Source: Deltaproteobacteria bacterium (GTDB lineage: Bacteria; Myxococcota_A; Polyangia; Fen-1088). Taken from it: a DNA stretch of 64,000 bases. Of this stretch, positions 18,136-18,951 are shown piece by piece (positions within the stretch are counted from its first letter, which is position 1; each line of letters begins with the position of its first letter). The DNA lies in the NCBI GenBank assembly GCA_033763315.1, contig JANRKS010000002.1, forward strand, positions 224,001 to 288,000, written 5' to 3'. A model generated the notes under the pieces. That model had not been told where the DNA came from. It was given only the letters and a program-made list of their open reading frames with translations, and did not search any database. The position numbers and the translations under genes are program-made.

Positions 18136-18951
18136 CTAATCCTTCTGTTCGAAGCGTGCACGGACGCAGCGCAAGAAGTCGTCCAGTGTGCTGATGCCCG
18201 GCCGCCAGGCGCCGGGGCTGAGGTGCCACGAGAACCGCTGCCATGAGCCGCCGAGCACTGACTCCGTCGACGTCCCCTTCGGGCTGGACCCGTTCATCAG
18301 CTTGACGGCCGGTGACACCCAGAACATGTCTGGCTGCGCGTCCGGGAACCCTGGTGGGAGTTTCACGAGCAGGCGCACGGGTTGCGGTTGGTACGCCGGT
18401 GGGATGGGCCACTCCTTGAACACCACGAATGTCCACCCGTCTGGCTGCCTGTGGATCTCAACCTTGTCCTGCCATCGCACATCGAGGCCGATCTCGGCGG
18501 ATCCATAGTCGGCCGGCGGTGACGAGTGGAGCCTAGAACCATCCCGCAGCAGGATGGTGTCGTCGTTGGCGATGACGAGATCGTCGCCGGGTTGTTCGAG
18601 GAACAACACGTCGGTGAGCGCGATCCCGCCGAGCTCCTTGAGGGCCCTCCCAGTCTGCGTCGGGCTGTCCAGCACGTACTTCACCCGGTTGATGAAGACC
18701 ACCGTGCGCTCCAGGCCCGGCGCGCCCGTTCCGTAATCCGCCGGGGGAGAGCTGTAGAGCTGCGCGCCGTTGTCGAGCGTGACCTCCTGATCGTTACCGA
18801 CCACGAGATCGTCACACCCCGGCCGGTCGAGGAACAACACATCGACGAGCGGGATGTTCGCGAGCTCCTTCAGGGCCCGCCCTGTGACCGTGGAGGCCTC
18901 GAGTTCGTACCGCTTCCGGTTGATGAGAATGATGACGCGATCCTTCTTCAT
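18136..18951 (-). CDS. Tandem multi-ubiquitin-like domains fused to a prokaryotic E2 (family E-like) domain
   Basis: Two ~70-aa beta-grasp repeats (IN..Y...TGRALKEL...LFL..PG.DD.V..D...L..G..L.SSPPADYG), then LLVKLPPGFPDAQPDMFWV...WQRFSWH...WRPG. Confidence 0.85.
   Translation of the reverse strand: MKKDRVIILINRKRYELEASTVTGRALKELANIPLVDVLFLDRPGCDDLVVGNDQEVTLDNGAQLYSSPPADYGTGAPGLERTVVFINRVKYVLDSPTQTGRALKELGGIALTDVLFLEQPGDDLVIANDDTILLRDGSRLHSSPPADYGSAEIGLDVRWQDKVEIHRQPDGWTFVVFKEWPIPPAYQPQPVRLLVKLPPGFPDAQPDMFWVSPAVKLMNGSSPKGTSTESVLGGSWQRFSWHLSPGAWRPGISTLDDFLRCVRARFEQKD

Follow-up and report, generated by a model that had tools for sequence, protein, structure and literature searches.

The first biochemical accounts of Bub pathways, formerly called 6E, date from 2024 (Ye et al., bioRxiv 2024, PMC11601596; Gong et al., PMC11601603), and multi-domain bacterial ubiquitin-like proteins (Ubls) have so far been treated as units that are cut once. 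In the Type I Bub system of Citrobacter, BubCD or its isolated JAB domain cuts the Ubl-E2 fusion BubAB directly behind G229, the conserved glycine of the junction, active-site mutants of BubCD do not cleave BubAB, and BubCD is described as a homodimer in which peptidase and E1 sites are each present twice (PMC11601596). The intermediates are oxyesters, formed on a crossover-loop tyrosine of the E1 and at a Ser/His/Asp site of the E2 (D299, S333 and H335 in Citrobacter BubB); JAB-dependent junction cleavage and oxyester conjugation are demonstrated there for the Citrobacter and E. coli proteins only (PMC11601596). Here we analyze a related gene pair in a stretch of 64,000 nucleotides from a Deltaproteobacteria bacterium (contig JANRKS010000002.1, positions 224,001 to 288,000; hereafter the window, in whose numbering all coordinates are given), in which a BubAB-like precursor carries two tandem Ubls, each ending in the motif SSPPADYG. 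A preliminary description made from the letters alone had proposed that the precursor is processed after both motifs.

Operons of this kind were recognized earlier. Row 6e of Iyer, Burroughs and Aravind (2006) describes 'polyUbl' operons with two to three tandem Ubls, sometimes fused to an E2-like domain, beside a JAB-E1 fusion (PMC1779556), an account that a 2024 review repeats (PMC11354881). The analogy with polyubiquitin was drawn in the same 2006 paper and is therefore not new. The locus studied here differs from row 6e in that the metal-binding protein 'Y' listed there as a partner was not found at this locus; the E2-like domain of row 6e was thought to be inactive, and the passages on this row contain no statement that each repeat has its own cleavable tail (PMC1779556). 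A cut by a JAMM protease after the C-terminal glycine of a Ubl is also described for Caldiarchaeum Rpn11 and its ubiquitin precursor (PMC6043591) and for Deinococcus DRJAMM acting on MoaD-MoaE (PMC8832034); these substrates are single Ubls, and the relevant passages mention no tandem Ubl.

The Bub-type gene pair and its two-Ubl precursor

The pair and the parts of the precursor are as follows.

18136-18951, minus strand: BubAB-like precursor gene, 271 amino acids plus stop codon, encoding Ubl1, linker, Ubl2 and E2 (open reading frame translation and Pfam)
18730-18951, minus strand: Ubl1, a beta-grasp domain, residues 1-74
18730-18753, minus strand: tail motif 1, SSPPADYG, residues 67-74, putative internal processing site after G74
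18706-18729, minus strand: inter-repeat linker TGAPGLER, residues 75-82, eight residues without secondary structure and with a low predicted local distance difference test score (pLDDT)
18502-18705, minus strand: Ubl2, the E2-proximal beta-grasp domain, residues 83-150
18502-18525, minus strand: tail motif 2, SSPPADYG, residues 143-150, predicted junction processing site after G150, matching Citrobacter G229
18139-18501, minus strand: BubB-like E2 domain, residues 151-271, with Asp208, Ser241 and His243 and no Cys at the catalytic position
16805-18127, minus strand: BubCD-like JAB(JAMM)-E1 fusion gene, 440 amino acids, JAB at about residues 1-162 and E1 at about residues 170-440

The first 150 codons of the 271-codon reading frame fill 18502-18951, with the G150 codon at 18502-18504, and the start ATG of JAB-E1 at 18127 lies 8 nucleotides past the stop codon of the precursor gene (18136-18138). 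Pfam assigned two stretches of the precursor to Multi_ubiq (PF14452, E 2e-10) and residues 171-268 to Prok-E2_E (PF14462, E 1.5e-21), and in JAB-E1 it found ThiF (2.5e-36) and Prok-JAB (4.7e-07). Phmmer aligned JAB-E1 with Citrobacter BubCD (9ea4_A) at E 9e-38, matching the HxH, S..D and G-Y-I elements with the crossover-loop Tyr, and aligned the E2 with Citrobacter BubB (9eae_C) at E 5e-05, where S241-W-H243 corresponds to S333-R-H335 and D208 (PDMF) to D299 (LDMF). Residues E24, H88, H90, S99, D102 and Y368 of JAB-E1 were invariant in 27 of 27 aligned BubCD homologues. Across 112 aligned BubAB relatives, H243 was invariant, and S241 and D208, together with P145, P146, A147, Y149 and G150 of the junction tail, were each at least 90% conserved.

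The locus is a Bub-type (6E/Type I-like) ubiquitination-like module with a BubAB/BubCD pair. It shares with Citrobacter Type I Bub (6E.1) the adjacent Ubl-E2 and JAB-E1 fusion genes, the junction Gly, a Cys-less E2 with Ser-x-His and Asp, the crossover-loop Tyr and the JAMM residues. The architecture of two Ubls and an E2 beside a JAB-E1 gene, as given in the preliminary description, is upheld by Pfam, structure and sequence matches, and JAB processing at the Ubl/E2 junction, proposed in the same place, finds support in the Citrobacter BubCD cut after G229 and in the presence here of the same catalytic residues. By homology with the experimentally tested Citrobacter BubCD, JAB very likely cuts after G150; the cut would free the E2 and expose the carboxylate of the Gly. 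It is reasonable to expect, on the same analogy, that the released E2 would be active and would work through Ser241 of the Ser-x-His motif rather than through a cysteine. PADLOC has no family for the BubAB-like protein and gave only weak CBASS 'E1-E2' matches for JAB-E1; in NCBIfam the former had no match and the latter only ThiF/MoeB matches below cut-off.

An AlphaFold2 (AF2) model of the 271-residue protein was built on the alignment of 112 homologues; it replaced a single-sequence model that was unusable (mean pLDDT 40.8). The alignment-based model has a mean pLDDT of 91.8 with a predicted template modelling score (pTM) of 0.53 and consists of two beta-grasp domains and a UBC-like domain. 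The strands and helix of Ubl1 span residues 6-68, its final strand being residues 64-68, and the final strand of Ubl2 spans residues 139-144. Both PPADYG tails are coil after the final strand (residues 69-74 in Ubl1), and mean pLDDT is 55 at residues 71-80, 76 at 141-150 and 68 at 151-160. The low pTM next to the high pLDDT suggests that the domains are not packed against each other in a fixed way. Top Foldseek matches in the PDB were the multi-ubiquitin proteins of Citrobacter (9d5a) and E. coli, BubB and BubA(155-229), with TMt values of 0.74 for BubB 9eae_C and 0.75 for BubA 9ea8_B; ISG15 chains (E 4e-3 to 3e-2) and linear di-ubiquitin were also matched.

As the preliminary description had pointed out, the two Ubls end in the same eight residues written with differing codons. 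Motif 1 reads AGC TCT CCC CCG GCG GAT TAC GGA and motif 2 reads TCG TCA CCG CCG GCC GAC TAT GGA, so that six of the eight codons differ. Ubl1 and Ubl2 are identical in 41 of 73 aligned columns (56%), with a nucleotide identity of 63%, and different codons are used at 17 of these 41 identical residues: 6/8 in the motif and 11/33 elsewhere (Fisher p=0.049). This distribution indicates that the motif is not a recent gene-conversion tract. A DNA repeat finder detected the Ubl repeats only as 109 nucleotides at 72% identity, with the motif outside. With 41 of 73 columns identical, a fully identical eight-column tail has a probability of 0.007.

Polyubiquitin and ubiquitin-fusion precursors supply several modifiers from one translation product. 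The precursor studied here resembles eukaryotic polyubiquitin in having tandem Ubl repeats in one polypeptide (two Multi_ubiq stretches and two modelled beta-grasp folds), each with the same Gly-ended conjugation tail. Copy number also varies by lineage in the bacterial family, and in several of its proteins the repeats are most closely related to one another. It differs from polyubiquitin in that the repeats are neither near-identical (56%) nor free of a spacer, an eight-residue linker lying between them, in that its C-terminal passenger is the E2 of its own pathway, and in that processing is presumed to be the work of an E1-fused JAMM metalloprotease. ISG15 carries its LRLRGG tail on the C-terminal domain only, and ISG15 and the bacterial BilA are proteins of two beta-grasp domains that are conjugated as one unit. 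The tandem beta-grasp domains are shared with ISG15; unlike in ISG15, the full Gly tail is found on both domains rather than confined to the C-terminal one.

Tails and linkers across the family

Homologues were taken from the best 120 of 381 matches at E <= 0.001 and from the best 150 of 615 matches in a 50%-identity representative library. From the matches listed in both searches 263 proteins were pooled, and their Ubl domains were parsed with a hidden Markov model (HMM) of the E2-proximal Ubl. The parsed set comprised 160 proteins with the E2 Ser-x-His motif and at least one Ubl, of which 70 had one Ubl, 84 had two and six had three. The junction tail is close to universal: P-x(2-4)-Y-G stands at the Ubl/E2 junction in 120 of 120 homologues among the matches listed, and Gly is the last residue of the E2-proximal Ubl in 147 of the 160 parsed proteins; nine further E2-proximal domains read 'NP', probably NPG one register off.

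The 96 internal domains of the parsed set were of several kinds. A full P-x-x-[YF]-G tail was present in 28, another x-G ending (mostly HG) in 27, and 41 had no terminal Gly. The 28 tail-bearing domains are followed by a variable hydrophilic linker with a median length of 7 residues (range -1 to 19), whereas the 68 domains without full tail abut the next domain directly (median linker -1). For the 271-residue protein the parser counts a linker of 7 residues, the next domain beginning one residue earlier. We then compared conserved positions, defined as nine core and three tail positions at which conservation across the 160 E2-proximal Ubls is 85% or higher. Tail-bearing internal domains keep a median of 9/9 core positions versus 7/9 in the others. 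Ubl1 keeps 9/9 core and 3/3 tail positions and, on these grounds, looks like a conjugatable Ubl; Ubl2 keeps 8/9 and 3/3. That tail and linker are kept or lost together, separating two classes of multi-domain Bub Ubls, appears to be a new observation.

Retention of the internal tail is not simply a matter of recent duplication, as is indicated by three sets of data. Identity between tail-bearing internal domains and the proximal domain of the same protein ranges from 24% to 97%, and in several lineages the tail is kept at only 24-47%. In a domain tree built without the tail (about 64 residues, with weak support), older position-specific clades keep the internal YG (P0009/10, P0017/22, P0023/24/26 and P0002/13), and recent within-protein duplications are seen in P0006, P0008, P0012, P0014 and P0015. 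Finally, in distant families the internal tail matches the terminal tail typical of the respective family, as in PPGNVG/PPGVVG, PVGRVG/PVGRVG, PTTINPG/PTAINPG and APGTFG/AEAAFG. The repeated duplication of whole tail-bearing cassettes likewise appears to be new.

These counts bear on two further points of the preliminary description. Its statement that bacterial multi-domain Ubls usually have only one terminal Gly was roughly right, the internal domains with a full tail being the minority. Its suggestion that homologues be aligned for conservation of the internal motif gave a divided answer, as the motif is kept in the closest clade and is not conserved in the wider family.

In P0015, which is also found as locus L002:3199-4260, the three repeats lie close together in the domain tree and the first two are without tail and linker. 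Short matches that looked like natural stand-alone Ubls ending at YG-stop were rejected, being contig fragments or products of frameshifted open reading frames.

Possible processing after G74 and its alternatives

We propose the following scheme. The N-terminal JAMM domain of JAB-E1 would bind the Ubl body, thread the PPADYG tail through its zinc site and cut after the Gly. The outcome that we rate highest, while regarding it as evenly poised, is that the same enzyme would cut after G74 as well as after G150, which would make the protein a poly-Ubl precursor delivering two separate Ubls per E2. If Citrobacter Bub is a guide, each freed Ubl would then be adenylated by the E1 domain, pass through oxyester intermediates at the crossover-loop Tyr368 and at the Ser241/His243/Asp208 site of the E2, and finally be placed on target lysines.

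A model of JAB (residues 1-162) in complex with Ubl1 and its linker (residues 1-84) was compared with three controls. The JAB-Ubl1 complex scored 0.83 and the best of the three controls 0.00; the mark for a pass is reached by 58 of 80 solved complexes and by 2 of 110 mismatched pairs. Between runs, 87% or more of the contacts recur, and the pLDDT of the partner is 85 or higher. The modelled JAMM site is occupied by residues 66-77 of Ubl1, which touch JAB residues 24, 88, 90 and 99-102, with Y73 against H88 and D102. The modelled pose is substrate-like and concerns binding, not cleavage. Combined, the comparative and modelling evidence favours, short of proof, a cut after G74.

A number of observations weigh against such a cut, and several of them speak for a di-Ubl unit comparable to ISG15 or to the 'Ubl2' proteins of the Bub family: only the G150 cut would take place, residues 1-150 would be conjugated as one modifier, and the internal tail would be a leftover or a spacer. 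We hold this to be a real possibility and give it limited credence. The sole multi-domain BubAB tested, that of Citrobacter, was cut once and gave two fragments only, its three-domain BubA being left whole and acting whole (PMC11601596). According to Gong et al., Citrobacter multi-domain BubA works as a unit and forms filaments, the first two domains of the Ubl3 protein doing so in a Ca2+-dependent manner; Ubl2 and Ubl3 are treated as single proteins, and Ubl2 proteins are monomers (PMC11601603). The Citrobacter experiment probably neither supports nor refutes the internal cut, because entry 9d59_A of the Citrobacter Ubl3 protein has no tail motif where the tail of Ubl1 aligns (a weak alignment, E 0.13, covering one internal domain end); the internal Ubl studied here differs in being a complete copy that has a tail and a linker of its own. 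In the PDB sequence search with Ubl1-Ubl2, this Citrobacter multi-ubiquitin match was accompanied by matches to IrtB, which we dismissed as chance.

Within the family, the large share of internal domains without full tail (68/96) means that multi-domain Ubls that stay whole clearly work. The close relative P0004 has PAADYD, with YD for YG, at its internal site and P0015, P0021 and P0025 have no internal tail, so the internal Gly is dispensable in some lineages; among 11 multi-Ubl loci from species-representative genomes, the internal tail is present in L001 only. The Foldseek matches to ISG15 and linear di-ubiquitin also fit a di-Ubl unit. Yet a leftover tail should decay, and it is kept in several lineages at the low domain identities given above; it co-occurs with a flexible linker that tail-less internal domains do not have; Ubl1 keeps 12/12 family-conserved positions; and the combination of pTM and pLDDT suggests domains that are not packed in a fixed manner. 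The acceptance of the Ubl1 tail in the modelled JAB active site points the same way, with the reservations that the pass may reflect memory of solved JAMM-ubiquitin complexes and that Ubl1 is closely akin to Ubl2, the true partner, such near relatives also passing the complex test.

Other objections concern the motif and the parsing. The motif signal within this single protein is modest, since a run of at least eight identical columns arises somewhere in 22.5% of shuffles and Ubl1 and Ubl2 share a second run of that kind, TGRALKEL; its weight comes from the family, that is, from the tail at every listed junction and the Gly end of nearly all parsed E2-proximal Ubls. Domain boundaries were set by our own HMM and the projection of its end, and five rows scored as 'noG' (P0032, P0045, P0051, P0074 and P0092) are artefacts of split-domain detection. 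Some tail-bearing pairs are recent duplicates, for instance in P0008 (97% identity) and P0012 (88%), and their motifs are silent on selection. Tandem duplication is indeed frequent, the repeats of P0006, P0008, P0012, P0014 and P0015 being mutually closest at up to 97% identity, and the motif could be a mere trace of recent duplication or gene conversion that is not itself selected. This is very unlikely for the protein studied here: its repeats share just 56% of their residues, codon differences at identical residues are more frequent in the motif than elsewhere, and Ubl1 and Ubl2 are not sisters in the weakly supported domain tree. If the internal tail were bound and not cut, it could be a pseudo-substrate or an additional docking point that keeps the precursor on the JAB-E1 dimer or regulates JAB-E1; this would agree with a complex model that shows only that the tail can occupy the JAMM groove, and with the two peptidase and two E1 sites of the BubCD homodimer (PMC11601596). 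We nevertheless consider it very unlikely: the internal and junction sites are alike in tail, in a small next residue (T75 and S151) and in a flexible downstream segment, and the passages on Bub in PMC11601596 and PMC11601603 offer no precedent.

Taken as a whole, the reading of the locus as a Bub-type module with a poly-Ubl-E2 precursor, internal cut included, stands in our judgement at an even balance. We hold a broader proposal slightly less firmly, namely that it represents a Bub sub-clade with true polyubiquitin-type precursors. In this sub-clade, duplicated cassettes of body, PPxxYG tail and linker would be cut to monomers by the E1-fused JAMM, copy number would set the dose of Ubl relative to E2, loss of internal sites would lead to fixed multi-domain Ubls, and the operon would lack BubE and have a third component of about 700 residues. 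No claim of internal, per-repeat cleavage was found in a literature search on bacterial Ubl systems that covered the two Bub papers in their preprint text, and the words 'polyubiquitin', 'precursor' and 'internal' are absent from both Bub preprints (PMC11601596, PMC11601603). If the proposal is true, the polyubiquitin-gene strategy was reached independently by bacteria and turnover of copy number tunes the supply of modifier, and the presence of tail and linker becomes a simple sequence rule for telling a precursor from a fixed multi-domain Ubl.

Operon partner, genomic setting and minor features

A third gene accompanies the pair.

19073-21325, minus strand: partner gene 'P750', encoding about 700 residues (750 codons, start uncertain, M37 at 21217 possible), just upstream of the BubAB-like gene

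The Citrobacter study states that 'all Bub operons possess bubE', the gene for a DUF6527 serine protease (PMC11601596). A six-frame search with PF20137 for DUF6527/BubE gave 0 matches in the genome that carries the locus (7.6 Mb, 90.85% complete) and matches in 0 of 5 genomes of relatives, the control genome being positive. Relatives of P750 were detected by BLASTP in 37 of 48 related loci from species-representative genomes (L001-L036 and L039), always on the same strand as the pair; judged by coordinates, they are adjacent to it upstream of BubAB in 20 loci and downstream of BubCD in 17, some of the matches being partial or cut by contig ends. On the basis of the missing PF20137 match and the conserved P750, the locus is a three-gene variant of Type I Bub without BubE. 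Such an operon type with a conserved partner appears to be new, with the proviso that the catalogues of the preprints (Table S1) may list operons of this kind or Ubl2 proteins like the one studied here. It widens the Bub family beyond DUF6527-associated operons and suggests that deconjugation or targeting is handled by another component.

P750 has no Pfam family, whether searched alone or across 28 homologues, and no NCBIfam or PADLOC match. A profile search of PDB sequences gave a weak similarity of its C-terminus to OmpR-type winged helices (E 0.007), and in the atlas its neighbours are unnamed bacterial and phage clusters. A crude check of the 48 loci found no small open reading frame of the CxCxC type beside BubCD. 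In loci L038 and L040-L048, mostly from Actinomycetota, the BubAB match is an E2-like open reading frame of about 130-180 residues followed by a BubCD-like gene (33-37% identity), without a P750 match.

In the BubCD clade of this locus, cysteines C286, C338, C341, C431 and C434 are invariant and form the arrangement CxxC...CxxC (C338/C341 and C431/C434), which we take to resemble the zinc site of MoeB/ThiF-type E1s. Citrobacter BubCD differs in having no cysteines in the stretch aligned with C338/C341 (PGGSTLSD). From the sequence, C338 and C341 are probably zinc ligands paired with C431 and C434; they sit just ahead of the crossover-loop region, and a catalytic role may also be envisaged.

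Two features to the right of the operon concern its mobility.

22953-24311, plus strand: tyrosine recombinase/integrase, with a weak Pfam match to Phage_integrase (8.4e-06, 26.1 bits, cut-off 27.1)
24320-24393, minus strand: tRNA-Gly(CCC), found by ARAGORN, a candidate island integration site

The integrase gene ends 8 nucleotides before the tRNA-Gly(CCC), and no second copy of the 3' end of the tRNA (att repeat) was found within the window. The locus is single-copy in its own genome, and in a set of 41 genomes of relatives, its own included, matches at E <= 0.001 occur in four, only one of the others being close (53% identity). This sparse distribution, with the integrase/tRNA-Gly neighbourhood, suggests that the locus is an accessory and possibly mobile element. 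An accessory stress or anti-phage function would suit the same setting and patchy distribution. GC content drops to 0.56-0.61 at 24-31 kb, right of the tRNA-Gly, where there may be a second island.

About 1 kb past the end of the BubCD-like gene lie two divergent genes for XRE-family helix-turn-helix (HTH) regulators, at 14890-15288 (plus strand) and 15394-15792 (minus strand). CapH/CapP or CapW regulate other Bub operons. A relative at 31% identity (locus L037:5838-6780) has an XRE HTH gene and an overlapping gene of about 195 residues just upstream of BubAB, resembling the CapH and CapP pair of Bub operons. At 12245-12316, the repeat finder detected two tandem 36-nucleotide copies that are 94% identical.

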